This document shows, one piece after another, positions 17,851 to 41,661 of a stretch of DNA of 62,416 bases. This DNA is from Rhodospirillales bacterium (lineage in GTDB: Bacteria; Pseudomonadota; Alphaproteobacteria; Bin95), in the NCBI GenBank assembly GCA_038143065.1, contig JAYQLI010000011.1, positions 1 through 62,416 on the forward strand. The letters run 5' to 3'. The position numbers and the translations under genes are program-made. The stretch's first letter is position 1, and each line of letters starts with the position of its first letter. The notes below the pieces were generated by a model, which saw nothing but the letters and a program-made list of their open reading frames with translations, did no database searches and was not told the origin of the DNA.

Positions 17851-17851
17851 T

Positions 17852-22285: not shown

Positions 22286-22319
22286 TGAAGATTGCGTTTT
22301 GGTGGTTAACCCTGAACAA

Positions 22320-22734: not shown

Positions 22735-22765
22735 GCCACTAAACCCCATAATACATTATGTTGGC

Positions 22766-22797
22766 AAGGCTTCCAAATCGGGAGCCTTTTTTATTTT
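22766..22797 (+). terminator. Rho-independent terminator-like hairpin
   Basis: aaggcttcc-aaatc-gggagcctt followed by a T-run. Confidence 0.55.
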
Positions 22798-22866
22798 CGG
22801 GTTATAAGAATGCTCGTGACGATCGTGTGACGATCTTTTTATCTAGAAAGTGTTCTGCTTTGGTAC

Positions 22867-23526: not shown

Positions 23527-23680
23527 TGACCCTCCTAAATGTTGTTGAAGTTTTTGTGGTTGGTTCTTTCCTCGCCACGAGACAGAAATGGGGTTTCTTT
23601 AGTTGGGTTTCAATAGTGACAATTGAGACCCACAAAAAATTGCGCTGCGTTATTCTGGGGGCGAACCAGCGGAGATCATT

Positions 23681-24300: not shown

Positions 24301-24309
24301 GCTAACCCC

Positions 24310-24507
24310 ATGCGCACACTCCCTAATAGCACTCTTGATGACACTCACGACGCAGGCGGGAGCTGAAGGCCATAAATTGAAAAAATGACCTGCCAAATGA
24401 CTGGAGAAATGAAATTCGGCGCATGTGGTCGGAGCGGCGAGGTTGAATTGGTGTTTTATTTCCACAATGCTGTAGATGTAGAATTGAGTGAAGAAGTAAG
24501 ATGTTGA
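24310..24507 (+). CDS. Small putatively secreted protein (frameshifted)
   Basis: Removing one C gives the signal peptide MRTLLIALLMTLTTQAGA. Confidence 0.35.
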
Positions 24508-24522
24508 AGGAATAAAGCGCTT

Positions 24523-24738
24523 ATGAACCTTGGCGGTAACGATTTTGCCAATAACGTCACACTTATCCTCGTATCGGTGCCAGCAGTATTATTTGCGCCC
24601 ATTTTAATCATTGGCTTCATCGAAACACAGTTTTTGCATGAAGAAGTGATAAACCTTCAAAATAGTGTGAATAGAATAATTTATTGGATTATCGTCACCG
24701 TTTCCCTTCTTCTGTTTAGCACGCTGGAAAATGGATAA
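24523..24738 (+). CDS. Small two-TM hypothetical protein
   Basis: Two hydrophobic stretches; overlaps the next ORF's start. Confidence 0.4.
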   Translation: MNLGGNDFANNVTLILVSVPAVLFAPILIIGFIETQFLHEEVINLQNSVNRIIYWIIVTVSLLLFSTLENG

Positions 24739-24970
24739 AAGCTATGCAACCGCAAAATGGATTAGGGTTAAGGCAAGCCCTGTAAATGACTCGCGCGCGC
24801 ATCAGACAGACGGAGAAACCTTCACAACAATAACAGTTGCTTGGAAGTTCACATTTGATGGAAAAGAGCATGAAGTACCCTTTTACTCACGAGACCAGTT
24901 TACACTTGATAGAGAGATTTACTGGAACCCAAAATCAAATAAAGTGGATAACGAGCTTCTTCATGAATAA
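24731..24970 (+). CDS. Small hypothetical protein
   Basis: 79-aa ORF overlapping both neighbours. Confidence 0.4.
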   Translation: MDKSYATAKWIRVKASPVNDSRAHQTDGETFTTITVAWKFTFDGKEHEVPFYSRDQFTLDREIYWNPKSNKVDNELLHE

Positions 24971-25148
24971 ACTAGCGTTTGTTATTTATGCAGTTATGAC
25001 AACATGGTGTGCTGTAGAAATTGTAAACCAAAGCATTGTAATCCAGCTCTCAGAGAACCTCTTGTTCATGGTACTGCCTATTCCTATCGGCTTTTTTATC
25101 TACCTGGAAATTAAAAGTCGAAGAACTTACCCCGGGCCATCAGATTAG
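24963..25148 (+). CDS. Small two-TM hypothetical protein
   Basis: MNKLAFVIYAVMTTW...LLFMVLPIPIGFFIYL. Confidence 0.4.
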   Translation: MNKLAFVIYAVMTTWCAVEIVNQSIVIQLSENLLFMVLPIPIGFFIYLEIKSRRTYPGPSD

Positions 25149-25428
25149 CGAGGTCTGATGCGTCTACGCGCGAGATGGGGCAAGTTTGCAGTAAAACTAT
25201 GAGCGGAAAGAACCCGGAAACCCGCAGCCATTCGTTTACGCTGTCAGCCTGATTAAGCTTCTGCTCCGCTTCTCTGGCTTTGTCCTGTTCGGCCAAAATG
25301 CGTGGACCCCACTCCGCTCCAATATCTGCAGGTTAGCAGATAAGCTGCAAGCTCAGATTCACTTAAGACTCCACATATTTCCCCTGCACCGCGTTACTCT
25401 GACAGCAATTAATTTTTTTGAGGACGGT

Positions 25429-25708
25429 ATGTCTGTAGAGATTAAACAAATCGATCGATAACTTTGAAGTGACAGTCTCGTCAGATGCAGTCACATAGCA
25501 CAAAGTTAAAATCTCTAACGAGGCCTACTATAGATATTCTCTTGGTGATGTTACCAAAGCTCAATTAGTGAATAAAGCTTTCCTATTTTTGTTACGAAAA
25601 GAACCCAACACATCTTTACTCACAAGCTTCAGTATCGAAGAAATAGAGAATTACTTTCCAGAGTTTAAGAATATAAAATCTATGGATTGGTTAGATATTT
25701 CAATCTAA
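25429..25708 (+). CDS. Small hypothetical protein (disrupted)
   Basis: RBS gagga; reconstructed FEVTV...FLFLLRKEPNTSLLTSFSIEEIENYFPEF; one indel and one stop. Confidence 0.45.
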
Positions 25709-25740
25709 GCATTTCTAGGCAGTGGCATTAAAAAACTGTT

Positions 25741-26282
25741 TCAATACCTATTCCACACATCATACTTCTTCCAGAGTTTGCATGATGTATTATCCATCAT
25801 GGTCTTTCCAAAATCGATGCCGTTTATTTTACAATAACCGACCACTCTATCGTAAGTGGTCGCACCCGTTAATGCGCACACCGCATATTGACCTTGAAAC
25901 CTTTGGCAAATTTCGTGACACGCTTACCCTCAGATGTGCTATTTTCAGGGCAATCTAGTGCGGAAATTTTACAGCTTTTCCTAATACCTCAAACGTATCC
26001 CCATCTCGCACATGCGTGATTTTACCTTCTAGAATGTTCTTATTTTGCTGAGTTTGAGTATCAGAGCTAGGAAGCCATGATAACTTGAAGTGATATACTC
26101 TGGTTTTCATAAAGCCAAAAGCCGCCCAAAACGGCCAAGCTGAAAAGAAATAGGATGCGGTTTGAACTGATGTTTCTAGGGTTTTTACGATAGACACGTT
26201 TAGGTCTATGACCAACTTTAAGGCCTTTTAGATATTTGTTTTTTTGCCAAGGAGAGCGTGGTTTTTTACTATTATCAATCAT
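25741..26282 (-). CDS. Thermonuclease (SNase)-family protein with N-terminal TM segment (frameshifted)
   Basis: EGKITHVRDGDTFEV, then ISALDCPE and TYDRVVGYC in the next frames. Confidence 0.75.
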
Positions 26283-26657
26283 CTTTAAACTAAACAGATG
26301 GTGGTCAGGCTGCCCAAATCCTTTTTTACCTTCATGGGATGGGCTGTTTAAGGTTATCAGAGTTTGGTCTGTTTGGGTTTGCTACCATCAGGCAAATAAG
26401 TGTTCTCCCTATTTATTCGCCTTCTGATGTTTTCCATAGAATATTCATTCAGACTTCTTTAGGTTTGCTAAATTTTCTAAACAAATACCTACCCAACAAA
26501 AAGGTTAGCAATATGGTGGTAGTCCTGTTGAAAAAATAGGATAGCGGCGGCTTGATATACATAATCGTCGTAAGGCGTGGTAAGAAATTGACTGAGTAAA
26601 GGCCAAGATCCTAGCCGCTCTTTTTTGCGAAATCCGCTAACGCAATCCACGTGTTTA

Positions 26658-26849
26658 GGTGGCGGTCGACCCACGAACTCACGCTATTCAGACATCAGCG
26701 CTTCACGCGAGGCATCCGCCAAACCATCCAAATCTAGTCTCATCATCTACTCCACTCCGTACAATCATCTCGTACTGAGCAGAGCCCGACGGTATTCGGG
26801 CATATCTACACACAGGCTTGCGGAGCGCGGAAGTCCAGTGGAAAGAGCA
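26658..26849 (-). repeat. Direct repeat copy A: leader plus 5' remnant of a DUF2924-like gene
   Basis: Aligns with 38229..38416; minus strand carries CCACTGGACTTCC and encodes MRLDLDGLADASREALMSE*REFVGRPPPKH. Confidence 0.8.
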
Positions 26850-26899
26850 GGGGATTGAAAATCCTCGTGTCGGTGGTTAAAATCCGCCCCCGGGCACCA
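26844..26899 (+). tRNA. tRNA-Phe(GAA) 3' fragment (pseudo-tRNA / att-like site)
   Basis: AGAGCAGGGGATTGAAAATCCTCGTGTCGGTGGTTAAAATCCGCCCCCGGGCACCA: anticodon arm, T-arm with degenerate loop and CCA end; no pairing 5' acceptor strand. Confidence 0.85.
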
Positions 26900-27020: not shown

Positions 27021-28060
27021 TCATGCAAATGTAGCGCCGATGATATTTTCGCGGGTGATTACGCCAGTCAAGATCGGGCTCGGTTTGAAGGGCCGGTTCT
27101 CTAGATGCGAAATCAGCGCCTCGACTGTTTGTTCAGCTACAATACGAACATTGAGGTGAATCACGATGTCCATTGTGCCATCCAATAGATATGATTTGGT
27201 GCGCGATGTAAGGTTATGGCCGATGAAGACGACCTCGTTTGCGACGCCTAAATCTCTCAGCGCACGCACGACGCCTTGATGTCCACCCCCAACGTTATAA
27301 ATACCGACAATATCGTCCCGTTGGCTGAATGCCTGCTGAACCCCCTGGTAGTTGCCTTCTGAGTCATCATGTCCATTAAGGGCTATAGCTTCTCTGATAT
27401 GTGAGAAATCCTGCCGCAAGCAGGCACGAAACCCGATCTCGCGATCTTCGTGCACGCGGTAGAGTTCACCGCCTGTGACCACGAGAACAGATCCCGCCTG
27501 CCGCGTGAGACGCCCCATCAGATAACCGGCGGTCCGGCCTGCGGCACGATTGTTTATACCGATGAAACCAATTGGCGCCGGATGTTCAAGCCCGGACATT
27601 ATGGTGAGTGTTGGGATGTTGAGTTTAGCGAGTCCTTCAACGGCGCCGTGCACGCGCGGATCTTCTAGCGCCTGAAACGCGACCGCGTCAACGCCTTGAC
27701 CTGCACATGCGTGGAGCTTTCTGGCCAGCAATGCCGGCTCCAGTTTCTTGGTGAAAACACATTCAATGGTAGCGTTACCGCGTGCGCCATAATCCTGAAG
27801 GCATTCGGCTAGAAGATCGGTCGATGGACCAGCCTCTCCGGGCAGGAACACCTTTAACCGCCAGGGTCTGGGGCGTGAACCGAGCGATGTACCGGCCTCT
27901 ATCGCGCGTTTGGCCTGAATTACCCGCTGTCGGGTCGACTCACCCACATGTGAGCGGTTGTTGAGAACGCGGTCAACCGTAGCTGTACCGACTCCTGCAA
28001 GCTTGGAGATCGCTGAAATTGTCGCCTTTTTTCGGAACGAATCTCATCTGAATCAGTCAT
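27021..28060 (-). CDS. LacI-family transcriptional regulator
   Basis: ATISAISKLAGVGTATVDRVLNNR HTH upstream of ORF 27021..27947; periplasmic-binding-protein-like domain. Confidence 0.9.
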
Positions 28061-28061
28061 A

Positions 28062-28136
28062 TTTACCATCAAATCACACCAAAAATGGTCATTACTTTAA
28101 ACAATTTACATCAATTTACATCAATTTATCAATTTA
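28062..28136. promoter_or_regulatory. Tandem CATCAA direct repeats in the divergent LacI/dctP promoter
   Basis: tttaccatcaaa ... tttacatcaa tttacatcaa tttatcaa. Confidence 0.45.
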
Positions 28137-28235
28137 ATGCAAGTTTTTATTGCCAATGGGCGCGCTCGCTGCAGATGCTCCGCCTCACTAGTAAATACAA
28201 TTACGCAGCCGATCAAATGGCAAAGGGAGGAACAA

Positions 28236-29227
28236 ATGAAATCTCTAACGAAAATCTTGGCAAGTGCTGCCAGCGGTGTTATCTGCGCGTCGACGGCGCT
28301 GGCTGCCGACTTCACCTTTACATATGGGCAGTCTCAGCCAGAAAGCTCTTCGCGCGGCCAGTCCATGGTCTTCTTCGAAAAGAAGTTGAAGCGCGTTCGA
28401 ACGGTCGGATCGACGTTCAGAACTTTTTTCGACAACACGCTCGAACCGAGCAGGAAATGTACGACCAAATGGCGACTGGCATTATTCAAGGACGCGCGGT
28501 GGTTTCTTCGCCAACGCAAATCCGCAGTTCAATATCTATCTGCTGCCGTTTCTGACCGCGGGCTGGGATGAAATGCGTTGTCTCGTAGGTTCTGATTTCA
28601 CGGATTCTGTCGAAGCCGCTGCTGGAAATGGGGTTCATGTTCCGGCGACCGGAGTTAGCCAAGGTTTCCGGATGTACACAAACAATGTACGCCCGATCAA
28701 TCAGGTATCGGATTTGCAGGGCTTGAAAATTCGCGAACCACAGACGGACTTCTTTATCGCGGTAGCTGAGTCGATGGGGTCGATTGTGACTCCCATGGCG
28801 TTCTCGGAGCTGTATCAGGCGTTCAAAACCGGCGTCATTGATGGTCAGCATAATCCGCCGTCCAACATTTGGAACGCGAAACTTTACGAAGTGCAGAAAT
28901 ATCTGAGCGTCACAAACCATATGACTGGACCAGACCCAATGCTGATTAACAAGGCGTGGTATGATAGTCTCCCGGCGGATCTTCAGCAGATCGTGAATGA
29001 AGTTGCAGATGAAGCCCTGAAGCTGAATGATGAACTTGCTCAAGCGGCTGAATTCAAGTTGCTTGGATGAGCTTGGAGCCCACATGGAAATTAACACGCT
29101 CTCCGCTGATGGCGTTGCGTCATTCCAAGCAGCGGTTGCTCCTGTTTATCAAGCAGGCATTGACGCTGGACACTACTCCCAGGCTGATCTGGATGCCGCA
29201 ATGGCCGCGGCCAAGTCTTGTAAATAG
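28236..29227 (+). CDS. dctP: TRAP substrate-binding protein (frameshifted)
   Basis: Signal peptide, DLQGLKIR, PMAFSELYQAFKTGVIDGQHNP, YEVQKYLS. Confidence 0.9.
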
Positions 29228-29243
29228 ATCGGCATAGTCGATA

Positions 29244-29270
29244 CCTTGCCCTGCTTTCGAGTAGGGCAGG
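29244..29270 (+). terminator. Stem-loop after dctP (mRNA stabilisation or attenuation)
   Basis: gccctgct-ttcg-agtagggc hairpin, no U-tract. Confidence 0.4.
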
Positions 29271-29336
29271 AACTATCTTAGGTCGACCGCGTGGCCCACG
29301 TAAACTTGGGCTAGGCGCCTTTTCGACGGTGAGAAA

Positions 29337-29843
29337 ATGGAAGCGCTAAAATCGTTCGAAGACTGGCTTACCAAGTTCCTGGAATGGATATTGGTTGGAT
29401 TATTCGGTCTTTTCATCATCCTCGTTATCTCAATCGTCGTCCTGCGCTTCGGATTTAACTACGGAGTCGTCGGTAGTGACGAACTCGTCCGAAAGAGTTT
29501 TGTTTTCACCAGCGCAATTGGGGGGGCGGTGGGCATCACTCGGCAGGAACACATAGCGATCACCTTCTTCATCGACAGCGGACCGCGCGCGCTGAAAAAA
29601 GCTCTTTTTTTGGTTGGCCTGTTTCTTGTTGGATTAATCAACGTTGCGATGATCTGGTACGCATGGAGTTGGATCGGCACTACGGGCAGTTACCCATGGC
29701 AACCGTTCAATCTTCCCAAAGTTATTGTGCAAAGCGCGGTACCGATTGGGTGTGGTCTTGCGACATTGGCCTGCGCGATGAAAATTGTTCTGACGCTCGG
29801 CGGGTGGGTGAACCTCGACGTTGTCTGGCTGCCGGAGGATTAA
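29337..29843 (+). CDS. dctQ: TRAP small permease
   Basis: Four TM segments, SDELVR, EHIAITFF. Confidence 0.88.
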   Translation: MEALKSFEDWLTKFLEWILVGLFGLFIILVISIVVLRFGFNYGVVGSDELVRKSFVFTSAIGGAVGITRQEHIAITFFIDSGPRALKKALFLVGLFLVGLINVAMIWYAWSWIGTTGSYPWQPFNLPKVIVQSAVPIGCGLATLACAMKIVLTLGGWVNLDVVWLPED

Positions 29844-29847
29844 TTCG

Positions 29848-31126
29848 GTGATCATTCTACTTATCAGCCTATTCATCCTTCTGCTTGTCGGCGTCCCGAT
29901 CGCCTATTCGCTCGGCCTGTCCGCTATGGCTTACTTCCTAATTGAAAAGCCGATGCTGACGGGAATCCTGCCCCAAAAGTTCTTTGCGGGTATGGACAGT
30001 TTTGCCCTTGTTTCATTGCCTCTATTCATCCTGATGGGTCTCGTCATGAACAGCGGTGGTATCACAGCCCGACTACTTGATCTGTCCATGTTCTTCGTCG
30101 GGCGCCTTAAAGGCGGCCTTGGCCTAGTTAATGTCGTCGCCTCAATGATCTTTGGCGGCATCTCTGGTTCCTCTGCCTCGGACACCGCCTCCATCGGATC
30201 AGTGCTGATCCCCGAAATGGAGAAGCGAGGTTACACGAAAAGCTTTGCAGCGGGGATCACGGTTGCATCTTCAACCATGGGAATGATTATTCCGCCATCG
30301 GTGCCGATGATCTTATATGCGATTGTAGCGCAGGAAAGCGTGGGGCAGCTGTTCTTGGGAGGCATCATTCCTGGGGTTATGGTTGGTGCGTTCCAACTGT
30401 TGTTGGTCTACTGGGTAGCCAAACGCAAGGATTTCCCAACCGAAGATATTCCGTTCACGATGCAGGAAGGGGTTCGTCAGCTCAAAAGGTCGGCGGTCGT
30501 CGTAATCATGCCCGTGCTGATTGTTGGTTCGGTTGTATTTGGCATCGCCTCACCAACCGAAACCGCTGGGCTGGCTGTCGCCTACGGGCTTTTGATCGGG
30601 CTCGCGATCACTGGGACCTCAGTTTTGAAGGAAATGCCTAAACTGATGCGCAGTGCCATCATCACTTCGGCCAAGATCATGATGATTATAGCATTTTCAC
30701 AGCTATATTTGGGTTCTGGCGCTCGAACGGGTACCTGATCTATTGGCTGATTTTGTGATCAGTTTAGGACTAGGGCCGATTGGACTGATGCTCGTGATTG
30801 CGCTTTTGGTTCTTATTGTCGGCACCTTTATTGACGTTAGTCCGGCGATCTTGTTGCTAACGCCGGTACTTTTGCCAGCCGCTCAATCGGTTGGCGTGTC
30901 GGGCGTGCATTTCGGCGTCGTTTTGGTCAGTGGACTTGCTGTCGGTGCCTGTACCCCACCCGTGGGGAATTGCTTGAACGTTTGCGCCGCGATTGCGCGC
31001 ATGGGAATCGGTCAGATATTCATTGGCGCGGCACCGTTCCTGGTGGCCAACGTCGCTGTTCTGGTTCTGCTTTGCCTTTTCCCACAGCTTGTACTTTGGA
31101 TCCCGGAGGTGTTTTTTGGATACTGA
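29848..31126 (+). CDS. dctM: TRAP large permease (frameshifted)
   Basis: GGISGSSASD, GMIIPPSVPM, TPPVGN. Confidence 0.9.
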
Positions 31127-31252
31127 CAATCTTAGGTTCATTGGGGTGTTTCGGGAAACGGCCTGGCGCATCGCGCAAGAAAACCCCGACCATAATGCGC
31201 TTAGGCGTTAACCTCGAAATTTGCTCCGCATTGCTGCGGCAACCAAGGAAAA

Positions 31253-32163
31253 ATGATGATGAATACTGGTGTAGTTGGCTTAGGCGACATGGGCTCTGGA
31301 CTGGCAAAAAATCTGATCAAGTCTGGGTTTCCGTCTTCTGGATTTGACCTGAGTGAATCCAGAATGAAGGCGTTTTCCGATTTGGGAGGAAGTCCCGCAG
31401 CTAGCGTAAAGGATCTCGCCCGAAAAACTGACGTGGCATTTGTCATGGTCATGACCGGCGATCAGGCGAAGTCAGTGATCCTCGGTGATGATGGTTTGGC
31501 GGCAAACATGCCGAAAGGTTCAGTCATAATTCTAACTGCGACGATAAAACCAAATGAAGCGACTGAAATTGGAAAGGCCTTGAATGGGACTGGAATCGGT
31601 TTGGTCGACAGCCCAGTCTCAGGCGGATTTCCCGGCGCGCAAGGTGGTACACTTACAATGATGGCTGCTGGATCTGATGCCGATATGAAGACCGCAAGGC
31701 CAGCAATGGAGGCCATATCCAGTACTATTTGGAAGGTCGGAGATCAACCAGGTCAAGGCCAAACGGTAAAAGCGTGCCTACAATCGCTTTTGGGGCGATG
31801 TTCTCGGCGACGTTCGAGGCCGCTGCCATGGCTGCTAAGGCAGGGATAAGTGGTCAGGCGTTTTACAACGTCGTCGCCAATGGTTCGGGCGGGTGTACGG
31901 TTACGAAGGCTGCTCTTGAAAATATCATTGATCGAAAATTCGAGGGAACTGGCAGTCACATTGCCACAATGCACAAGGATCTTACGATTTCTATGAATTT
32001 AGGCGAACAGCTGGGTGTACCGCTCCATACTGCTGCCGCTGCTATGCAGATCTTTCACGCTGGCAAAACCAAATACCCAGATGGCGACAACTGGGTTTGC
32101 ACGCGCGTTATCGAAGAAATCGTTGGCGCAGAACTTCATAGGGATGGAGCAAGACAGATATGA
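31253..32163 (+). CDS. Beta-hydroxyacid dehydrogenase (3-hydroxyisobutyrate/L-threonate dehydrogenase family; frameshifted)
   Basis: GVVGLGDMGSGLA, VDSPVSGG, GQTVK, HKDL. Confidence 0.85.
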
Positions 32164-33021
32164 AACTGGGCGTAATTTGTGACGGCATAAGCCGCGACCT
32201 ATCTCGTGCGTTGGATGTCATGGACGAATTTGGCTTGGAATATGCAGAGCTACAATTCGTCGGCGAAAATGAAGTCGGCGATCACTCCGCAGAACAAGTC
32301 AAAACGATCGATCGGTTACTACGCGATCGTGGAAAGCCTGTTTCTTGCCTTTCGAGGCATATATTTGCGGGCATGACATCTGCCAATCGGCCGGGTGACG
32401 AGCTTCATACCCAACACATGGATGCCTTAAAGCGCGTTATCGAAATGGCCCATGTCGTTGGATCGCCGCTGGTGCGCATCATGACGCAGAAAAAGAGCAA
32501 ATTCTGTGGGGCCGCAATGGAGCCGAAAAGTGGAATGTAGCTCATGGGGCATGGGAAACGATGCCGCCTTTAATCGCGCCAGCCTGCGAGCTTGCAAGAT
32601 CTGAAGGCATCACGTTGGTCGTGGAAACTGGAAACGGCACAATGGTCAATTCAAACTACACCGCCCGCCGTTTGATCGACGAACTGGACGCCAAGGACGT
32701 GCTCAAGGTGCTGTGGGACCCAGCCAATAACTGCTGGTGCCACGAACGCGCCTATCCGGACGGCTATAATGAGGTCCGGAATGGTTATCTCGGCCACGTA
32801 CATATCAAGGACGTGCAGGTCGATACCCCGAAGGCCACACTTGAGGTACGCGAAATGGGCAAGGGCAGCTTGCTGATCAGTTCCACCCATTGGCCGATGC
32901 AATGCGTGCGGACGGGTATGACGCTGTCATCAGCTTTGAAAGCGTCTACCACCCTGGAAACGGAAACTTCGAGGACGGGTTCAGGCGGTGTATCGACCTC
33001 TTCAAAGAGATTTTCGGTTGA
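32160..33021 (+). CDS. Xylose-isomerase-like TIM-barrel (AP_endonuc_2) sugar isomerase/dehydratase (frameshifted)
   Basis: LVVET, LWDPAN, HVHIKD and SFES metal-ligand pattern. Confidence 0.8.
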
Positions 33022-33030
33022 GGAAACAGT

Positions 33031-34179
33031 ATGAGAAACTTTCGCGTCGGACTAATCGGCACTGGGCGGATCAGCGAAGTTTATTTACGAAATTGTGCGG
33101 CCTTTGGCGAACTGGAGATTGTTGCCTGCGGATCGCTGAACATGGATGAAAGCCACGCCAAGGCGGCAGAGTTTGGCGTGCCGCGCGTGGCGTTACCAGA
33201 GGAAATCATCGCCGATCCAGAGATTGATTCGATCCTCAATCTGACCATTCCGGCGGCCCACGCCAACGTCAGTATCGCCGCGCTTGAATCGGGCAAACAT
33301 GTCTATTCGGAGAAACCTTTCGTCACGGATCTCATGGATGGACGTCGTATTTTGGATTTGGCGCGCGAAAAGGGCCTGACCGTTAGCAATGCACCAGATA
33401 CCTTTCTGGGTGGGCGCTGGCAGACGGTGCGAAAACTACTTGATAGCGGTGTCATCGGGGCACCAACTGGAGTGGCCGCATTCGTACCCACGCGTGGCGT
33501 CGAACGCCACCACCCAAACCCGGATTTCTATTATGCCAAAGGCGGCGGGCCGCTTCTTGATTTGGGTCCTTACTACTTGACGGCGATGGTATTTCTCTTG
33601 GGTCCGATCCGACAGGTCGCGGCCATGGGCAAGAAGACCTTCGCCGCTCGGATGATCGAGAACGGACCGCGCAATGGCCAGGTGATGCCGGTCGAGGAAG
33701 ACACCCATTGCCTTAACCTCATCGCATTTGAAAACGGGGTAATCGGTGAGATGATGGTCAGCTTCGACGTCTGGGAAAGCGAAACCCCGCGTTTCGAGAT
33801 CTATGGCGAGGACGGCACTATTTGCATCCCTGATGCTGACCCTGGCGATGGAGCGAATATCTTTCATGGACCTGTTTGGTATCGCACCCGAAAAGAGGCA
33901 CGTTGGAGCATGCGACCCCGACCCGTTGCCCCAGCGGAGTGGTGCGTTGCCAGGAACACTCATGGCTTTAACTACGATGCGCGTGGTGTTGGCCTATTGG
34001 AAATGGCGGATGCCGTCACCAATGGCCGCACCCCCCGCGCAAGCGGCGCGTTGGCCTATCACATAACCGAGGCGATGCAGGCCATGTTGACTTCTGCCCG
34101 AGAGGCTCGGTTTGTCGAAGTGGCCAGTACCTGCGCGCGGCCTAAACCTCTACCCGAAAACTTCCCGGAAGATTGCTAA
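33031..34179 (+). CDS. Gfo/Idh/MocA oxidoreductase
   Basis: GLIGTGRIS, GKHVYSEKP, GGGPLLDLGPYY. Confidence 0.92.
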   Translation: MRNFRVGLIGTGRISEVYLRNCAAFGELEIVACGSLNMDESHAKAAEFGVPRVALPEEIIADPEIDSILNLTIPAAHANVSIAALESGKHVYSEKPFVTDLMDGRRILDLAREKGLTVSNAPDTFLGGRWQTVRKLLDSGVIGAPTGVAAFVPTRGVERHHPNPDFYYAKGGGPLLDLGPYYLTAMVFLLGPIRQVAAMGKKTFAARMIENGPRNGQVMPVEEDTHCLNLIAFENGVIGEMMVSFDVWESETPRFEIYGEDGTICIPDADPGDGANIFHGPVWYRTRKEARWSMRPRPVAPAEWCVARNTHGFNYDARGVGLLEMADAVTNGRTPRASGALAYHITEAMQAMLTSAREARFVEVASTCARPKPLPENFPEDC

Positions 34180-34182
34180 ACC

Positions 34183-34842
34183 ATGCCGATCCAAACTCTT
34201 GATATCGCCGAACCATTTTTCACAATCAGGCTGATCACGGATGATCAATCCTATCCGATTGAAGGCAAGGTCATCCTCCTCAATCTCTCAGAAACCCCAA
34301 TACGCATCCGCGAACAATCGCTCGGCGCCCTGCAATCAGTAGTGTTGGCTAATACGATTGCCGAGGATGTCACCCATGCTGCCGTGATCGAGCGTTTCGC
34401 CGATTACGAGGATGAAGACGCGTTGATGGCGCGTGTGCGCGGCACCTGGCCTTCTGCCTTCGAAGTACGTCAGGAAGAGCGCCTGCGCGGCATCGGGCAC
34501 TATATGTCGCCCAAGGTCTGGATTGGACAGTTTGGCTTCACCGTGTATCACTCTTCTACTGTGCCATTGAATGTAGGCCTGCATCGTGAACATGCCTTCT
34601 GCCCGGTGCCGGGCTTTCGTGAGGTGCACACACAAATCATGGGGTTTGGTAAGATGCAGCAATGCCGTGAAAAGGACGTGGCGTCGCTTTATCTAGAAGA
34701 ACCTATGGCGCCGGGCACCACGCATCGCCCGATGTATGATGCTGCAGGCAAATTCCCGTGGCATCAGTTTGAAACTATCACGCCCTCAATCTTCATGGCG
34801 GTTGAGATGCTGCCCGAAGGCGCGATCCCTCCGGAGCTTTGA
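34183..34842 (+). CDS. Cupin-like metalloprotein resembling the aldos-2-ulose dehydratase/isomerase cupin domain
   Basis: GLHREH..FREVHTQIMGFGKMQ...THRPM...FPWH pattern (family recall, not searched). Confidence 0.5.
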   Translation: MPIQTLDIAEPFFTIRLITDDQSYPIEGKVILLNLSETPIRIREQSLGALQSVVLANTIAEDVTHAAVIERFADYEDEDALMARVRGTWPSAFEVRQEERLRGIGHYMSPKVWIGQFGFTVYHSSTVPLNVGLHREHAFCPVPGFREVHTQIMGFGKMQQCREKDVASLYLEEPMAPGTTHRPMYDAAGKFPWHQFETITPSIFMAVEMLPEGAIPPEL

Positions 34843-34845
34843 TCC

Positions 34846-36028
34846 ATGTCTATTTTGCCAGTGACCTTTGACTTTAACGGTGCCTGCCCCTCGCAGTCCC
34901 GCCGCTTGCGCCTTGGCGTTGTTGGTGGAGGGCGAATATCGCATACTCAGGCAATGGCGGCGCGGCTGACGGACCGCTGGGAGGTCGTGGCTGGGGCGCT
35001 GTCCTCGGATCCCGCCCGCGCCAAAGCGGCCGCGAGGATTGGCACCTGCCCGAAGAGCGGTGTTACACCTCTTTCGTCGAGATGGCCGATGCTGAAGCCA
35101 ATCGCGCCGATGGTGTTGATGCGGTAATGATCACCACGCCCAATCATGTGCATTACGAAGCGGCGCTGGCCTTCCTTGATGCCGGGATTGACGTGCTTTG
35201 TGACAAGCCGCTGACCAATGAGATGGCCGACGCTGATGCCCTGGTTGATGCCACAGCCAGAACGGGATGCGTATTTGGCGTCTCCTACGTCATGTCTTGT
35301 TTCGCGATGATCCGGCAGGCGCGCGAGATCGTGGCAGCAGGTGGCGTCGGCAAGATCAACCAGATCCACGTGGAGTTCATGCAGGATTGGATGACGTCCG
35401 ACGATGTTGCCGAGGCAGCTCATGTAAAATGGCGGCTCGACCCTGCGAAGTCAGGGCGCACCTCCTGTGTTGGCGATATCGGTACCCACGCGGTGCATCT
35501 CGCACAGTTTGTCAGTCATCTGCCCTAACGCACCTGCGCAGCGAATTCCATGTCTGCGGCGCACCAAAGCCGCTGGAAGACACGTTTTTTGCGTGGACCC
35601 GCTATGCAGCTGACGTGCCGGGCACACTGTTAGCGACACGCCTTGCCCCAGGCAATCGCGGTGGTTTGCGGCTGCGCATTTTCGGCTCCGAAGGCGGGCT
35701 GGAATGGGACCTGGAGCATTCGGAGTATCTCAAACACGCCCGCTTCGGAGAGCCCGACCGTATTCTTAGCCGTGGCCATGCGCATGGTGTATCACAAAGA
35801 ACCGAACGTCTTATCCGTACGGGTCGCGGGTTCCCAGAAGGACTAATCGAGGCCTGGGGCAATCTTTATACAGAATTCGCGCTGGCCACAGCTGCTCGTC
35901 GAGACCAGATAAAGGTACCGGACACCTGGCTGGACATGCCACGAGTGGCTGATGGAGCTGCCGGTGTCCAGTTCATCGACGCGACGGTTCGCTCGAATGA
36001 AAAGGGCGGCGCATGGGTAATTATCTAG
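34846..36028 (+). CDS. Gfo/Idh/MocA oxidoreductase (frameshifted)
   Basis: LGVVGGG, ITTPNHVH, CDKPL, GDIGTHA. Confidence 0.88.
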
Positions 36029-36110
36029 TTCTCCACCCTTGGGGTCCGCGTCCTTGTACGCCGAAGACCTTATCCCGTAGAATCGCCCATCAAGCAAGGA
36101 GGGTAAAACC

Positions 36111-37256
36111 ATGCCCCATCGCCCACTCTCTGAAATAAGAGACACACTGAAACCGCAATGGTACCGTTCCAAAATGCGGCCTGAGCGCTTCCGTGAACTG
36201 TCCAAGCGCGATGATCGGAAAGGCTGGGTGCAGGCTGGTGGGCACTTCGCCCTGTTCTGCCTCACGAGTTTGGCGGTTTACCTGACGTGGGCTCAAGGTG
36301 TGTGGCTTTTATTTCTGATCGCTCTTTTCGTACATGGCACATTTGCCTCATTCTTTCGGGGAACAGCCGTGCAAGAACTTGGACATGGGACAGTGTTCCA
36401 GAGCAAGCGGTTGAACGATGCATTTCTTTATCTATTCAGTATGATCAGTTGGTGGAACCCCTTCGATTATGCCGCAAGCCATACCTATCATCACCGCTAC
36501 ACGTTGCATCCCGAGGGCGATCGCGAAGTTCTGATGCCGGTTCATCCAAATGTTGGCCGAACCTTCCTTTTGCAGATTTTCACACTAAACGTTTTTACCC
36601 AACCAGGACGCACATTCGGCAAGGGCGGCATTTTGTCGGCTATCTGGATGACGATGCTGGATGCCGTTGGGAAACTACCCTCGAACGATGTTCCAGCAAA
36701 CGAATGGCTACGTGCATTGCATGAAGATCAACCCGAACAGGCTCGGAAATCCATGTGGTGGTCGCGTATCCAGTTGGCGTTTCATGGCCTTGTCCTGATG
36801 GTGGCGATTAACACTGGCCAATGGGTCTTGCCGCTGATCCTAACACTTCCGAGTTACATAGCGAACTGGCTGAGTTACTTTGTCGGGCTGACCCAGCATT
36901 GCGGGCTGACGGAAGCGACAACGGATTTCCGAAAGAACACGCGCTCTATCCGCCTGCCGAAATTCGTTGAGTTTCTTTATTGGCATATGAACTGGCACAC
37001 CGAACATCACATGTACGCCGGTGTACCCTGCTATAACCTACCGCTCCTTGCGTTAGAGATCAAAGACGATATGCCAGAGCCGCGTACGCTTCGTGGGGCG
37101 TGGCGTGAGATGCTTGACACTTGGGAGCGTCAGAAGACTGACCCTACTTATGCGTTCGATACGCCCCTGCCTGCGACGGCAAAAACAACTTTACGGCAGG
37201 CGGCAGGCACCGAAGAAAAATCCATTGGTGAACTAGCCCCGAGAGGGCTCGCATAG
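36111..37256 (+). CDS. Membrane diiron fatty-acid-desaturase-family protein, MocD-like
   Basis: His boxes QELGH, HTYHH, HTEHH; QHCGL and GVPCYNLP. Confidence 0.8.
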   Translation: MPHRPLSEIRDTLKPQWYRSKMRPERFRELSKRDDRKGWVQAGGHFALFCLTSLAVYLTWAQGVWLLFLIALFVHGTFASFFRGTAVQELGHGTVFQSKRLNDAFLYLFSMISWWNPFDYAASHTYHHRYTLHPEGDREVLMPVHPNVGRTFLLQIFTLNVFTQPGRTFGKGGILSAIWMTMLDAVGKLPSNDVPANEWLRALHEDQPEQARKSMWWSRIQLAFHGLVLMVAINTGQWVLPLILTLPSYIANWLSYFVGLTQHCGLTEATTDFRKNTRSIRLPKFVEFLYWHMNWHTEHHMYAGVPCYNLPLLALEIKDDMPEPRTLRGAWREMLDTWERQKTDPTYAFDTPLPATAKTTLRQAAGTEEKSIGELAPRGLA

Positions 37257-37283
37257 CGTGGGCAATTTAAGAGGAGAATTGGG

Positions 37284-38114
37284 ATGAAACGGATCTACGA
37301 CTGGGATGCGAAGTTTTGCTTGCGCAACTATACTACCGCTGATTTGCTAGCGTTGAAGGGTGTCCGGAAACTCACCCAAACCACTGCCAATTCCGAAGAA
37401 GAGGCCGCCGCTGCCGCCGACGCGGGAATCGATTTGATCATGGTCAATGCGGTTAATGCAGAGGCGGTACGCTGCGGTGCACCAAATCACTTTTACACCG
37501 CTGCGATCCCGATGCCGGATCACCCTACAGAAAAAGACGTATTGGAAGCTGCTTTTCTGGCCATGAAACGAGGCGCGGATTCAGTCTACACCGCACGCGG
37601 TCCGCATGTCGTTGAGTTGCTGGCGCGCGAACAAATACCCGTCATGTGCCATCTTGGTCTTGTCCCGCGTCGTTCGACATGGAATGGCGGCCTTCGCGCC
37701 ATCGGCAAGACGGCCGAAGAAGCTTTAGCACTTTGGCAGAATTTCCGCGATATGGAAAATGCGGGTGCATTCTCTGTGGAAGCAGAGGTGATCTGTGATC
37801 GCGTAATGGCCGAGATCAGCAAACGAACCACGCTGATTACGTCGTCGCTGGGATCAGGCGCTTGGGCTGACATTATCTATCAGTTCCAGAACGACATCTG
37901 CGGTGAACAACCCGAAAGCCCCCGCCACGCCCGCGCATTTGGAAACCTCCACCGGTTACAGGAACAGATCCGCTCGGAGCGTCGAACGGCACTTTCCGCC
38001 TTCCATCAGGCAGCAAATTCAGGCGACTACCCCGCCACTTCCGAAACCGCAGCGATCGCGGACGAAGAATTTGACAGGCTTTTGACTATCTTGGCGAACA
38101 CCGGTGCTCATTGA
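37284..38114 (+). CDS. Divergent PanB-like (ketopantoate hydroxymethyltransferase fold) protein
   Basis: IPVMCHLGLVP, AGAFSVEAEV, PRHARAF; lacks the canonical LVGDS motif. Confidence 0.75.
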   Translation: MKRIYDWDAKFCLRNYTTADLLALKGVRKLTQTTANSEEEAAAAADAGIDLIMVNAVNAEAVRCGAPNHFYTAAIPMPDHPTEKDVLEAAFLAMKRGADSVYTARGPHVVELLAREQIPVMCHLGLVPRRSTWNGGLRAIGKTAEEALALWQNFRDMENAGAFSVEAEVICDRVMAEISKRTTLITSSLGSGAWADIIYQFQNDICGEQPESPRHARAFGNLHRLQEQIRSERRTALSAFHQAANSGDYPATSETAAIADEEFDRLLTILANTGAH

Positions 38115-38228
38115 CTGGTCTCGAACCCTTCTGTGCGATGCAATGCCATTGTGTCGCTTATGAGAGCGATTGCTGTAAAAGCGATTTCTGCGACTGGATA
38201 GGATCGACTTGATCTCGCTTAAAAAGTG

Positions 38229-38416
38229 GGGCGCGGGCGACCCACGACCTCACGCCACTCTGCCGTCAGCGCCTCACGCGAAGCCGCTGCCAAACTATCC
38301 AGATCAAGTCTCATTATCCACTCCGTGCAATCATCTCGTACTGAGCAGAGCCCGACGCTATTCGGGCACACCTACACACAGCTATACAGAACGCGGGAAG
38401 TCCAGTGGAAAGAGCA
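38229..38416 (-). repeat. Direct repeat copy B: leader plus 5' remnant of a DUF2924-like gene
   Basis: Aligns with 26658..26849; encodes MRLDLDSLAAASREALTAEWREVVGRP. Confidence 0.8.
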
Positions 38417-38561
38417 AAGATGGCTGGATCTCCGAATGGGCTAGTTGGGCTGAGAGAACCATCTTTAGAGACAGCAGGAGTTTGAATGGTCCGCAATTGT
38501 TCAAAGCCAAACCTTTGAAATACTCAATCTGAGAGGAACCCTGTGTCTCGTAGCGCGGTTT

Positions 38562-39260
38562 TTACCTGTCGAACGATATCGGCGCTGGTGTGGCGCCTGT
38601 GTCGTTTTGGTGAACATGTTGGGTGAGAGTGAATTTTTCACAACGCTGCAGGACGCGTGAAATTCTTTTTGCCCCTGTAGCCTTGGAGATGTGAGCAACA
38701 TTTTCAGCAGTGATCCCGCCGCCGGGCATGATAATGATTGCTTCACCAGCATGTTGAACCATCTTGGCGATTTCAGAAGCTCCGATGTCGGCGTTTTGGG
38801 CGCCGCCAGAGGTCAGGATCCGATCAAAACCCAGTTCAACCGCCATATCAATAGCGCGCAGTCGGTCTGTAATAACATCAACCACACGATGCAGCGTTGT
38901 ATCTAAACCTGACGCTTTATCCATAAGGCGCCCAAGGGATTTTATGTCCAAATTACCGGCCCCATCTTCGATACCGAATACGACACCGCTTAGGTTGTAG
39001 GAGCGCGCGGTTGAAATATCATGCGCCATTATTTCAATGTCATGCGGATCATAATTAAAATCACCGGCACGCGGTCGGATCATCACATGACAGGGGAGTC
39101 CGGCCTGCGCCGCGGCCTGCATTAAACCGGCTGAAGGCGTCAGGCCTCCTTCGCTCAGAGAGGAACACAGTTCAATCCGGTCTGCCCCTCCTTTCTTGGC
39201 AGCCATTAATCCCGCAAAAGAATCCACGCATACTTCGAGTATAGGACCAAATTTATTCAT
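38562..39260 (-). CDS. cutC: CutC-family protein
   Basis: LEVCVDS, GADRIELCS, GGLTPS, MIRPRAGDF, RILTSGG, MPGGGI. Confidence 0.92.
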   Translation of the reverse strand: MNKFGPILEVCVDSFAGLMAAKKGGADRIELCSSLSEGGLTPSAGLMQAAAQAGLPCHVMIRPRAGDFNYDPHDIEIMAHDISTARSYNLSGVVFGIEDGAGNLDIKSLGRLMDKASGLDTTLHRVVDVITDRLRAIDMAVELGFDRILTSGGAQNADIGASEIAKMVQHAGEAIIIMPGGGITAENVAHISKATGAKRISRVLQRCEKFTLTQHVHQNDTGATPAPISFDR

Positions 39261-40421
39261 TTTTTCTTGGTAGCTGTAATAAATCTGCGAGTGATCCCTG
39301 ATATTCTAAACCGTCGGTCAAGCAAATAATGTCTTTTATGCTGCGGCCCTGCAACTGATCCAACTCTAGTCCCATCGCGTTACCTGGTATGGTTATGGCC
39401 ATTTTCAAAGCATCTTCTGCAGAAATTCCGATGCCGTCTACCAAGCGTTTAACACCTTCGTTTTGAGTTGTGTGGGCGCCTGCCAGACCACCTTCACTGT
39501 TGACCAAACGGTTGTTGATAAGGGCAACCTTTGATCCGTACAGATTAAATTCGGTCGGGCCGCCAACGGTGGGCATAGCATCTGAGACAAGATACATCCG
39601 ATCCGAGACGGGCCTTGCGCGAATGGCCATTGCGACCATTTCATCGGCAACATGTATTCCGTCACAAATAATTCCAGCGAAGGCGTGCGAGTTGATCGCC
39701 GCGCCCACCACACCGGGCTCACGGCCCGCCATGGGCGGCATCGCGTTGAAAAGATGTGTGAAGCAACTCGCGCCGGCTTCTAGCGCGCGGCGCACTACGT
39801 CCGCTGGGGCCTTTGAATGGCCGATCGAGACCACTGTGCCCAAGTCGACCAAACGGCTAATGTCTTCCGGTGAAACGACATCTGGAGCGAGAGTGAGCAT
39901 CGTTGGCACATGAGCGCTCCTAAGTCTCTCGACGAGCCGGATAGTGTCTTCATCCAAGGGTCTGACAAACTCTGCCTTATGCGTACCACGCCTTTCTACC
40001 GATATGTGCGGGCCCTCGATATGCATTCCCAAGATGCCATTTTGGCCTACGGCTTCCATTACCGCATCAACGGCCCGGCTTAAGACTGATACTGAATCTG
40101 TGATGACTGTCGGCAAAATTCCTGTTGTCCCATATTTTCTGTGCGCTTTGCGATGTCCCAAATCGCCTCTTTGGTCGGTGTCTCATTCAAGAGAACGCCA
40201 CCGCCACCGTTGACTTGAAGGTCTACAAATCCAGGAGAAATTATACCTTCAAAATCAATTACCTGATGGGCTTCTTTAATCTGAATATCTTCGGTGAATA
40301 TCTGGACCCTTCCGTTCAAAACCCCTAGCACAGCTCCCATATGGAGCCTTCCTTTGTTGAACAAACGAGACGGACGGATCCATTGTGTAATATCAGCAGC
40401 TTCAGTCACCACGGTCCCCAA
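39253..40421 (-). CDS. nagA: N-acetylhexosamine-6-phosphate deacetylase (frameshifted)
   Basis: PGFVDLQVNG, HIEGP, IGHS, THLFNAM, DGIHV, VSDAM. Confidence 0.92.
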
Positions 40422-41661
40422 AAATAGGGCAACAGAGCGCCTTGAACTTCGCTTCGAACGATTGCGCGCCCGCGTGATGCTGCCAATCCTTCCGAACGCT
40501 TTAGGACGTCTGATGAAAAGCTTTTTGCCAAAATGTGTTCGGGGACTTTCAACTCATCGAAAGTCAAAATTAAGGCCTCAACTGCCTCTTGAACGGCCGG
40601 CAATGGCCAATAGTATCGGATACGATCTGCATAACTGAAGTGCCATTTAGACATGTCGTCCTCTGAGTAATGCGATCTCCAGTGTTCAGGATTGTTGCGC
40701 ATCGCAGCTTCCATAACCTGAGGAAGTGCAACCTCCGAAGGGGTTAGCTTTTGAACAATGTGATCAAGAGCATAAAGCGCTCTTCGCAATGCGAAAGTCA
40801 GTGCTGGACCAACTTTTGGAATGCAAAACCCATGTCAGCAAGTTTTGCGAATGTCTCTGGCGGTTGATAATCTGTTGAATGTGCTTCAAGGCAAATTTCC
40901 GTATACTCCGAAATAGCCTCGCGAAGCCCGGGGTCTGTGGCGTTTGCCATGGTGAAGACGTGATCTGGTCCAAACTCAACACCCGGCTGAACCACGAGTG
41001 CAGAAACTTGAGGCCACGAATCTGCGATTCCCTTTTCGGCGAAGGCGGCGCGGTGTGCCATGAGAGTTTTGACCGCAGCTTCAGGAGATGTCGGTATAAT
41101 ATGCCCGTCTTCGCCAAGCCGTGCACCACCAGGGGCAGGGACCTCGGTCCCGATCACAAATATCAGGTCTTTGGGCACGGGTGCGGCATTGAGACAACTA
41201 ACGGCTAGAAGCGCAGCCCGTTCAGCAGCTGTTACATCGTCGAGCATTGGCGGTTCTCCCGCACAACCTCCTGAACAATCGAGATGGATCTTTTTGATGC
41301 CTGCGCGTACATAATCGGATACAAGGTCATGTGCCTTGGCCATGGCCCTATCAGCGGTTTCTGATTTCCACACCTGTGGACCCAAATGATCACCACCAAG
41401 TTCTACAATATTCGGTGCAATTCCATATTTGGATTTTAGGTCATCAATGAACGCGACGAATGCGCGTGCATCCATACCTGTATAGCCCCCGAACTGATTG
41501 ACCTGATTTGATGTTGCTTCAATCACCAGCGGTCGGTTCAGACTTGAAGCAAGCTGTAAAGAGGCGCTCAAAACCTCTGGATGTGCAGAGCAAACCGATG
41601 GAATTGTTATACACTCGCCCGCCTTGTTACGGGCAATAATATCCCGCAGCATATCAGACAT
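40406..41661 (-). CDS. agaZ: AgaZ/KbaZ-family protein (probable tagatose-6-phosphate 4-epimerase; frameshifted)
   Basis: SVCSAHP, IEATSNQVNQFGGYTGM, GGDHLGP, IGTEVP, EAHSTDYQ, DRIRYYW. Confidence 0.9.

Follow-up and report, generated by a model that had tools for sequence, protein, structure and literature searches.

A putatively LacI-controlled, horizontally acquired island in a marine alphaproteobacterium joins four conserved modules and may degrade an acidic carbohydrate- or cyclitol-like compound

Introduction

What compound is broken down by a gene cluster that places a tripartite ATP-independent periplasmic (TRAP) importer, a 3-hydroxyisobutyrate dehydrogenase (HIBDH)-type enzyme, a triosephosphate isomerase (TIM) barrel, two Gfo/Idh/MocA oxidoreductases (Gfo1 and Gfo2), an unannotated 219-aa protein, a membrane oxygenase and a PanB-like protein next to a single LacI-family repressor, and do these proteins serve one pathway? 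The question is raised by positions 27021-38114 of contig C11 (JAYQLI010000011.1) of a Rhodospirillales bacterium, where the window is the entire contig, 62,416 bases long, from a genome of 4.63 Mb in 52 contigs. We propose, with a probability of roughly 0.55, that this locus is a LacI-controlled, horizontally acquired island of a marine alphaproteobacterium that degrades an acidic carbohydrate- or cyclitol-like compound, probably of algal origin, and that four modules have been joined in it. These modules are the TRAP importer with LacI, the HIBDH with the TIM barrel, the 219-aa protein between its two Gfo enzymes, and the oxygenase with the PanB-like protein. Judged from gene neighbourhoods, the island is a mosaic of these four separately conserved modules, and it consists of known enzyme families in new combinations together with one protein family that lacks any annotation.

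Gene content and layout

Gene families were assigned by Pfam match, and gene order was taken from open reading frames (ORFs) and from homology to intact relatives. In 27021-38114 a LacI-family gene on the minus strand is divergent from ten co-oriented plus-strand units, which follow in the order DctP, DctQ, DctM, HIBDH-like dehydrogenase, AP_endonuc_2 TIM barrel, Gfo, 219-aa protein, Gfo, FA_desaturase and Pantoate_transf-like protein. From DctQ through the PanB-like gene, consecutive genes overlap or are spaced by at most 127 nt. The features are:

26751-26849, no strand: direct repeat of about 100 nt, left copy, 89% identical to 38317-38416
26825-26896, plus: weak tRNA-like sequence overlapping the end of the left repeat (Rfam tRNA 29.6 bits, gathering score 29)
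27021-28031, minus: LacI-family repressor, start region hit by indels (Pfam Peripla_BP_4)
28245-29224, plus: DctP, TRAP solute-binding protein, split over three or more frames (Pfam DctP, 164 bits for one fragment)
29337-29843, plus: DctQ, small TRAP membrane subunit, intact (Pfam DctQ, 74.5 bits)
29821-31126, plus: DctM, large TRAP membrane subunit, one break near 30704-30743 (Pfam DctM, 255 and 91 bits)
31253-32163, plus: HIBDH-type beta-hydroxyacid dehydrogenase, break at 31789 (NAD_binding_2 and NAD_binding_11)
32160-33034, plus: xylose-isomerase-like TIM barrel, breaks at 32492 and 32866 (AP_endonuc_2; predicted metal-dependent isomerase/epimerase)
33031-34179, plus: Gfo1, Gfo/Idh/MocA oxidoreductase, intact (Pfam; top PDB match 4fb5)
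34183-34842, plus: 219-aa protein, predicted bicupin (no sequence family; fold like the cupin domain of aldos-2-ulose dehydratase)
34846-36028, plus: Gfo2, Gfo/Idh/MocA oxidoreductase, breaks at 35034 and 35523 (PDB 3v5n at 1.5e-88)
36111-37256, plus: membrane di-iron oxygenase of the FA_desaturase family, 'MocD-like', frame intact (FA_desaturase, 86 bits)
37284-38114, plus: PanB-like protein, intact (Pantoate_transf, 100 bits)
38317-38416, no strand: direct repeat, right copy, matching the left copy

A first-pass annotation made from the sequence alone had described ten co-oriented genes divergent from LacI. The families and their order are borne out, and every family named in its title is present, while that title left out the HIBDH-like dehydrogenase. 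Ten intact genes are not what the contig holds as written: DctQ, Gfo1, the 219-aa protein, the oxygenase and the PanB-like gene are intact, and 6 of the 11 genes (the LacI start, DctP, DctM, HIBDH, TIM barrel and Gfo2) are frame-broken, which went unmentioned.

Modular conservation

Three sets of loci were collected: 80 centred on the oxygenase, 16 on the 219-aa protein and 80 on the TIM barrel (the best 80 of 450 relatives, from species-representative genomes, all of these 80 being at least 82% identical). The same seven enzymes with LacI, in the same order, are present in Ruegeria sp. HKCCA6707 (locus L001), and all of the families occur together again, in another arrangement, in two Hoeflea metagenome-assembled genomes (MAGs; L211 and L244). 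In Hoeflea, the minus strand carries the PanB-like gene, a Rieske ferredoxin and an FA_desaturase paralog that is 32% identical to the island oxygenase, and the locus continues with a second LacI gene, a LacI gene at 82% identity, DctPQM, HIBDH, TIM barrel, a QuiC-like fusion and a Gfo gene, and then with Gfo1, the 219-aa protein and Gfo2. Part of this arrangement is seen in Aliiroseovarius crassostreae and one Paracoccaceae MAG (L228 and L229), where a PanB-like gene, Rieske ferredoxin and oxygenase are followed by LacI and by TRAP, HIBDH and TIM barrel genes; a Nioella genome (L245) has the same set, with no PanB-like gene within the stretch examined. Lack of co-occurrence elsewhere had been named beforehand as the outcome that would count against the proposal, and the genes do recur, in Ruegeria and in Hoeflea; as one fixed unit, however, the ten genes do not stand, since the neighbourhoods show four modules that are mostly apart.

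In the triad, Gfo1 lies upstream of the 219-aa gene in 16 of 16 loci and Gfo2 downstream in 15, the contig of the sixteenth ending there. Elsewhere the usual partners of the 219-aa gene are a GntR regulator, an additional Gfo, a different TRAP system, a fusion of a QuiC-like AP_endonuc_2 domain with HPPD, a protein resembling citryl-CoA lyase, an aldehyde dehydrogenase of the acylating type and a thiamine pyrophosphate (TPP) enzyme. The HIBDH gene is directly upstream of the TIM gene in 72 of the 80 TIM-centred loci, in surroundings that vary and that are rich in uronate and other sugar-acid genes, with UxaC, UxuA, mannitol dehydrogenase, MR_MLE (enolase superfamily), IlvD/EDD, Gfo and TRAP neighbours. 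Many carriers of the TIM barrel belong by name to seaweed-associated taxa, such as Granulosicoccaceae, Tateyamaria, Rhodophyticola and Devosia rhodophyticola.

In other Rhodobacteraceae (L082, L085, L088, L089 and L096, among others), the Gfo-bicupin-Gfo triad belongs to a different, undescribed extended cluster, which adds a fusion of a QuiC-like dehydratase with HPPD, an equivalog of citryl-CoA lyase, an aldehyde dehydrogenase of the acylating type and a TPP enzyme. The assignment of triad partners as iolD and iolA was rejected, as the TPP enzyme is acetolactate-synthase/Xsc-like and the aldehyde dehydrogenase is an acylating, SauS-like one, both below cut-offs.

Around the oxygenase, HIBDH and TIM genes are found in 6 of the 80 loci and a PanB-like gene lies directly downstream in 8; a conserved operon around the island-type oxygenase was considered and rejected, the neighbours being heterogeneous over the 80 loci. 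Oxygenase, Rieske ferredoxin and PanB-like gene occur together in the two Hoeflea MAGs, in A. crassostreae and in the Paracoccaceae MAG. On rhizobial replicons (an R. leguminosarum CB782 plasmid, S. meliloti 1021 pSymB and R. etli p42e at 488817-494454), LacI is found with a desaturase, 'MocE', ferredoxin reductase and 'panB' paralog, next to an inosose-isomerase-type TIM barrel. The island oxygenase is matched at about 30% identity by 276 plasmid records, and the oxygenase/PanB-like pair spans the marine Roseobacter group, the symbiosis replicons of Rhizobium and Sinorhizobium, and Deinococcota. For the rhizobial desaturase-MocE-reductase-'panB' operon (SM_b20818-20821), the portions of the literature searched hold no functional study.

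Such a distribution could also arise if four independent modules with separate substrates had been joined by recombination on a mobile island, forming no single pathway. Each module is far commoner without the others, the order LacI, HIBDH, TIM, oxygenase without the Gfo triad in Aliishimia (L015 and L213) makes the triad look inserted, and the largest gaps (83-127 nt) fall at the module borders DctM/HIBDH and Gfo2/oxygenase. Set against this are the renewed occurrence of all families together in Hoeflea, in another arrangement and with a paralogous oxygenase, which would be unexpected by chance; the recurrence of PanB-like gene, oxygenase, LacI, TRAP, HIBDH and TIM barrel in L228 and L229, and likewise in L245 apart from the PanB-like gene; and, within the island, the single divergent LacI and a 4-nt gene overlap across the TIM/Gfo1 module border. 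We consider a chance mosaic unlikely, and favour the joining of the four modules into one degradative system.

Enzymes and importer

Gfo1 and Gfo2 group with PDB entries 4fb5, 3v5n and 3dty, and this group is placed with a broad-range scyllo-inositol/L-glucose dehydrogenase in an excerpt of a published study (PMC5969746). The 219-aa protein encoded between them has 895 relatives, for which 'hypothetical protein' is the sole name among the 120 listed; it has no match in Pfam or NCBIfam, and none among PDB sequences beyond a best E of 0.92. Conserved His and Glu residues lie in its C-terminal half, which hardly varies among relatives. A model from 17 sequences, with a predicted local distance difference test (pLDDT) score of 79.7, finds bicupins as its Foldseek matches, and in a structure search independent of Foldseek its closest match is the bicupin domain of aldos-2-ulose dehydratase (AUDH; 4a7k_A), with Z 15.2 and a root-mean-square deviation of 3.1 over 205 of 219 residues, the next entry reaching 9.8. 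In a protein atlas, a score of 0.94 links it to a cluster in which 33% of members have AUDH_Cupin (PF18637). By fold, the protein is predicted to be a bicupin, which agrees with the label 'cupin' that it had been given from the sequence.

A paralogous cluster lies on contig C32 (L261, 4086-8154), behind an ABC sugar importer, and holds an AP_endonuc_2 protein, a Gfo1-like protein (41%), a 351-aa TIM barrel and a Gfo2-like protein (40%). With a TIM barrel in the place of the bicupin between two Gfo enzymes, this cluster fits a shared logic.

NCBIfam equivalog cut-offs were checked for eight island proteins. The best match of the HIBDH is L-threonate dehydrogenase, at 210.9 bits against a cut-off of 350; the Gfo proteins reach 61 and 90 bits where the levoglucosan dehydrogenase equivalog demands 650, and 75 bits against 355 for IolG; the PanB-like protein scores 68.9 against 207.55 (TIGR00222) and 82.5 against 272 (NF001452); and the TIM barrel has no NCBIfam match at all. 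In the latter, E160, D191 and E265 are invariant and H219 is nearly so among 45 sequences, and a Glu-Asp-His-Glu set of this kind forms the metal ligands of xylose-isomerase-like TIM barrels. The model of this protein (pLDDT 96.3) matches many isomerases, epimerases and hydratases of the fold equally well (Z 24-28). OtnI and Hyi were considered as its identity and rejected, as no NCBIfam model matched and the fold search returned the generic isomerase/epimerase fold.

The oxygenase has three His boxes, at residues 88-92, 124-128 and 296-300, which are conserved in 77 of 77 sequences save for a Gln at residue 88 of the island protein. In the marine relatives, the Rieske ferredoxin is 72% identical to rhizobial 'MocE' and the oxygenase is 51% identical to the rhizobial one. 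The earlier label 'MocD-like' is appropriate at the family level, and relatives carry a MocE-type Rieske gene between oxygenase and PanB-like gene.

The PanB-like protein matches the profile of E. coli PanB (1m3u) at an E of 7e-26. In E. coli PanB, Asp84 is a metal ligand, and Lys112 and Glu114 are likewise functional positions; in the island protein these are replaced by Ala, Tyr and Ala, as they are in 11 of 13 family members, the other two having Gly, Tyr and Ser. Residues at the places of His136 and Glu181 are retained, and the GDS-type motif that marks the N-terminus of PanB is absent from the family alignment. In R. etli, the second 'panB' of p42e (RHE_PE00443) has no detectable metal-binding domain and does not complement a panB mutant, according to an extract of PMC3082293. 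Across the 45 kb of p42e that were examined there is a single 'panB' gene, located downstream of desaturase, MocE and reductase genes, and RHE_PE00443 is most likely the PanB-like member of this mocDEF-like operon. With three PanB positions altered and a rhizobial member that does not replace PanB, one-carbon (C1) removal by PanB chemistry is unproven; the suggestion of a PanB paralog with C1 removal therefore holds for the Pantoate_transf family and is weakened for the chemistry.

For the importer, DctP, DctQ and DctM are all present by Pfam, with frames broken as written. The GFR motif of an 88%-identical Aliiroseovarius DctP aligns to the GFR of PDB 4p47, and the island fragment has the same motif. 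The arginine of this motif pairs with the carboxylate of the ligand in TRAP binding proteins. Because DctP keeps it, an acid is favoured over a neutral methyl-cyclitol, and the substrate is probably a carboxylate, as far as this motif can tell; of the O-methylated cyclitol or sugar acid proposed at first pass, it is the acid that gains and the neutral methyl-cyclitol that loses.

A variant of a described inositol/rhizopine (iol/moc), levoglucosan/3-keto-glycoside or hexuronate pathway would account for several of these findings, including the position of the Gfo enzymes in the scyllo-inositol dehydrogenase clade of PDB entries (PMC5969746, as excerpted), the matches of the TIM barrel to IolI, IolE, 3-keto-glucoside 4-epimerase and 2-hydroxy-3-keto-glucal hydratase among many, the resemblance of oxygenase and Rieske ferredoxin to mocD and mocE, and the frequent location of the HIBDH-TIM pair beside UxaC, UxuA and UxuB-type genes. 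On the other side, the equivalog cut-offs for IolG, levoglucosan dehydrogenase and L-threonate dehydrogenase are all missed, the TIM barrel and the 219-aa protein have no match, and by Pfam the island lacks a TPP enzyme of the IolD type as well as any kinase or aldolase. The island has TRAP and LacI, whereas moc uptake presumably relies on MocB, a binding protein of the ABC type, with MocR as the regulator, and to our knowledge none of the iol/moc, levoglucosan, 3-keto-glycoside or hexuronate pathways contains a bicupin or a PanB-like protein. A known pathway in variant form thus appears quite improbable, and a distinct route for an acidic compound is preferred. That the combination matches no described pathway, as had been suggested at first pass, is supported by the eight proteins that fall below equivalog cut-offs and by the lack of any description of such a cluster in the portions of the literature searched.

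Gene integrity and assembly errors

As written, the DctP pieces lie in separate frames (28245-28499, 28492-29064 and 29060-29224), and relative to intact homologues DctM and HIBDH each occupy two frames while the TIM barrel and Gfo2 each occupy three. Compared with the Ruegeria homologue, each of the five breaks in enzyme genes is the loss of a single base, and residues 15-350 of the Ruegeria LacI find an 88% match in a single frame. The locus is present nearly word for word in 14 DNA runs (0.91-0.92 of sampled words) and in 6 RNA-library runs (0.52-0.86 of sampled words). Contigs from four other sequencing runs (X1, X2, X10 and X15, the last an RNA run) were aligned to it, and those of all four align at about 99.7% identity.

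These contigs read through most of the breaks differently from the contig examined here. All four runs have an extra G behind 31791 (HIBDH), an extra A behind 32489 (TIM barrel) and indels at 28032 and 28037 (LacI start). In DctP, the other runs carry indels at 28206, 28377, 28424, 28442, 28489 and 29063, the insertion at 28377 being seen in three of the four and absent from the RNA run X15; an indel at 31240 is also read. In DctM, TA is inserted behind 30703 in X1 and X2, and in X10 and X15 no correction at 30703 is among the indels listed, which are all but six; X10 record 11, which spans the DctM break, has three gaps, one of them among those listed (31240). The corrections at 32866, 35034 and 35523 come solely from the gap counts of spanning records, where records that cover only the Gfo2 breaks have two gaps each in X2 (record 28) and X10 (record 14) and one each in X15 (records 23 and 24). 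Over 10.4 kb, X1 record 1 has 18 gaps against 25 substitutions relative to contig C11, and such an indel to substitution ratio is far above that expected of natural divergence.

Two further observations agree with this. On the 2.86-Mb main contig (C35, 2660058-2664196), rpoB, an essential gene, is broken into two pieces that overlap, which points to consensus errors across the genome. Within the island, residue 88 of the oxygenase (36372-36374) is Gln in the contig and the first His of the HELGH box in 76 of 77 relatives, and position 36374 reads T for A in all four other runs, which restores His; the assembly therefore carries substitution errors besides indels. Given the compensating indels in all four runs and the split rpoB, the frame breaks belong to this assembly and are not gene decay, and the cluster is accordingly treated as intact in nature. 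A truly decaying pseudogene cluster in this strain, to which the 6 broken genes of 11, the abundance of split genes along the whole contig and a lower long-ORF cover on small contigs than on the main contig might point, was rejected as very improbable, since at about 99.7% identity the other runs carry indels that restore the frames at the listed breaks, rpoB is likewise split, the 18 indels to 25 substitutions are unlike natural divergence, and a metal-ligand His read as Gln in the contig is His in all four runs.

Foreign origin and surroundings

The island has a guanine-plus-cytosine (GC) content of 0.538, compared with 0.473 for the genome. Its enzyme genes share 80% DNA identity, and 65-93% protein identity, with the Ruegeria sp. 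HKCCA6707 locus. The C-terminal part of the host RpoB has at most 76% full-length identity among the matches listed (80% over one partial match) and is about 70% identical to Rhodobacteraceae; because of this low identity to that family, the host is placed as an alphaproteobacterium outside Rhodobacteraceae. A search of 30 relatives (77-100% complete, 9 of them of the same genus) did not find the 219-aa protein. The direct repeats of about 100 nt bracket the island, with more copies on contigs C48 and C10, and some contigs of the other runs diverge from C11 at 26989/26990 and 38223-38238. At the weak Rfam tRNA-like sequence (26825-26896), ARAGORN found no tRNA. The GC shift, the 80% DNA identity to Ruegeria, the negative search of 30 relatives and the flanking repeats point to horizontal acquisition of the island.

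The 4.7 kb to the left of the island (22000-26750) have a GC content of 0.42 and almost no ORFs of at least 120 aa, and hold a frame-split HD-domain gene (small alarmone hydrolase-like) at about 23076-23526. Further left, 1-22005 carries LysR, SDR genes, a DHDPS-like gene and a second, broken TRAP system (5386-8476), several genes being split, and 10941-22005 holds a CoA-transferase, enoyl-CoA hydratase, acyl-CoA ligase, acyl-CoA dehydrogenase and thiolase set. To the right, 38562-52790 resembles an amino-sugar utilisation cluster and is frame-broken too; it holds CutC, a minus-strand set (39253-49983) in which GatZ/KbaZ-like, ROK, SIS and Gfo genes accompany an ABC sugar importer, and a GntR/UTRA regulator with a GH20 hexosaminidase in two pieces (50191-52790).

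Proposed pathway

From the gene content we infer the catalytic steps, their order and the kind of substrate as follows. DctPQM would import a carboxylate once LacI is relieved, and one Gfo enzyme would oxidise a ring hydroxyl to a ring ketone. The bicupin, as a metal-cupin, may then dehydrate or isomerise the keto intermediate, as the cupin domain of AUDH does on keto-sugars, and the other Gfo enzyme would reduce the bicupin product. HIBDH and the putative TIM isomerase/epimerase could convert a hydroxy-acid or keto-acid intermediate. The membrane di-iron oxygenase, which in relatives would be fed by a MocE-type Rieske ferredoxin, may hydroxylate a methyl or methoxy group, and the PanB-like protein may handle the resulting one-carbon or hydroxymethyl unit.

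A more specific version, which we hold to be doubtful, would combine a C1-removal module with the AUDH-related Gfo-bicupin-Gfo route in the degradation of a methylated algal acid, such as a methylated uronate or a mycosporine/gadusol-type ring. In it, the oxygenase would hydroxylate a methyl group, O- or C-linked, of an acidic sugar or cyclitol, the PanB-like protein would take off or capture the hydroxymethyl group or formaldehyde, perhaps onto tetrahydrofolate, and the triad would be a new bacterial keto-sugar dehydratase/isomerase route. In the portions of the literature searched, no mycosporine or gadusol catabolic gene cluster was found, and no bacterial anhydrofructose or pinitol catabolic cluster is described.

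Several findings weigh against a single pathway of this kind. The four modules are mostly found apart, the full set occurs in only one of the 80 oxygenase-centred loci (that of Ruegeria), and the usual neighbours of the oxygenase are unrelated (PGI, PEPCK, RecO and peptide ABC transporters). Beside the island oxygenase (36028-38560) there is no ORF for a Rieske ferredoxin or a reductase, and the enzyme is only 30-32% identical to the Rieske-linked paralogs. The PanB-like protein is without Asp84, Lys112 and Glu114, so that its chemistry is not set by homology to PanB, and of the three further PanB-like paralogs in the genome none was seen next to a desaturase. The bicupin link depends on a predicted model with a pLDDT of 79.7 and 10% identity, and Pfam AUDH_Cupin (PF18637) matches none of the 17 family members at E up to 10. 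RNA-library contigs span 29161-33413 and 35409-38224, and as such libraries may contain DNA these contigs are no proof of a transcript.

Three of the four modules (the bicupin, the HIBDH-TIM pair and the oxygenase/PanB-like pair) are widespread and unstudied, and solving one carrier would annotate hundreds of clusters. Such work could show the use of a methylated or ring-shaped acid by marine and root bacteria, and would give a function to the misannotated rhizobial 'second panB'. The frame breaks of this genome should not be taken as gene decay.

Comparison with known systems

The nearest counterpart of the oxygenase module is rhizopine catabolism, for which mocDEF are described with mocA and mocC (Bahar et al., 1998, as cited in an excerpt of PMC10107442); on S. 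meliloti 1021 pSymB, SM_b20817-20820 are named with mocD, mocE and mocF in a part of PMC11387232. As in moc, a divergent regulator in the island accompanies Gfo/Idh/MocA dehydrogenases, a TIM barrel of the AP_endonuc_2 family and an oxygenase of the FA-desaturase type. In contrast to moc, the island oxygenase shares only 30% identity with the rhizobial enzyme and lacks a neighbouring Rieske or reductase gene; the island's uptake system is TRAP and not ABC, its regulator is LacI-type, and it has the extra HIBDH-TIM and Gfo-bicupin-Gfo modules. We know of no biochemical proof even for MocD.

While E. coli PanB (PDB 1m3u) and the PanB-like protein share a fold family and the His136 and Glu181 positions, the PanB-like family differs in having Ala/Gly, Tyr and Ala/Ser at Asp84, Lys112 and Glu114 and in being without the GDS-type motif. 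For the second module, LtnD with OtnI (L-threonate) and E. coli glxR-hyi are, we assume, comparable pairs of a dehydrogenase and a xylose-isomerase-like TIM barrel. As in these, a beta-hydroxyacid dehydrogenase stands next to a TIM barrel, an enzyme that would shift the carbonyl of a small acid or invert one of its centres; unlike them, the HIBDH reaches 211 bits against 350, the TIM barrel has no NCBIfam match, and the island has no kinase or decarboxylase.

The levoglucosan and 3-keto-glycoside routes presumably consist of a Gfo dehydrogenase, an AP_endonuc_2 lyase/hydratase and a Gfo reductase (the titles of PDB 8ro4 and 6wn6 are among the matches of the TIM barrel). The triad is like these in that two Gfo enzymes flank a metal enzyme expected to act on a keto intermediate, and unlike them in that the middle enzyme is a predicted bicupin and not a TIM barrel, and in that the substrate is probably an acid.

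The closest likeness for the bicupin itself is AUDH of Phanerochaete chrysosporium (PDB 4a7k; Claesson et al., 2012, cited in an extract of PMC4795551), which the same extract counts among the few cupin dehydratases. AUDH is an 879-residue solved chain, as opposed to a stand-alone protein of 219 aa at 10% identity, and the island bicupin is bacterial and is always located between two Gfo genes in the loci examined. Nevertheless, the 219-aa protein superposes on the bicupin domain of AUDH (chain residues 457-735), and both would act on a keto-sugar, which in the island is expected to be made by a neighbouring oxidoreductase.

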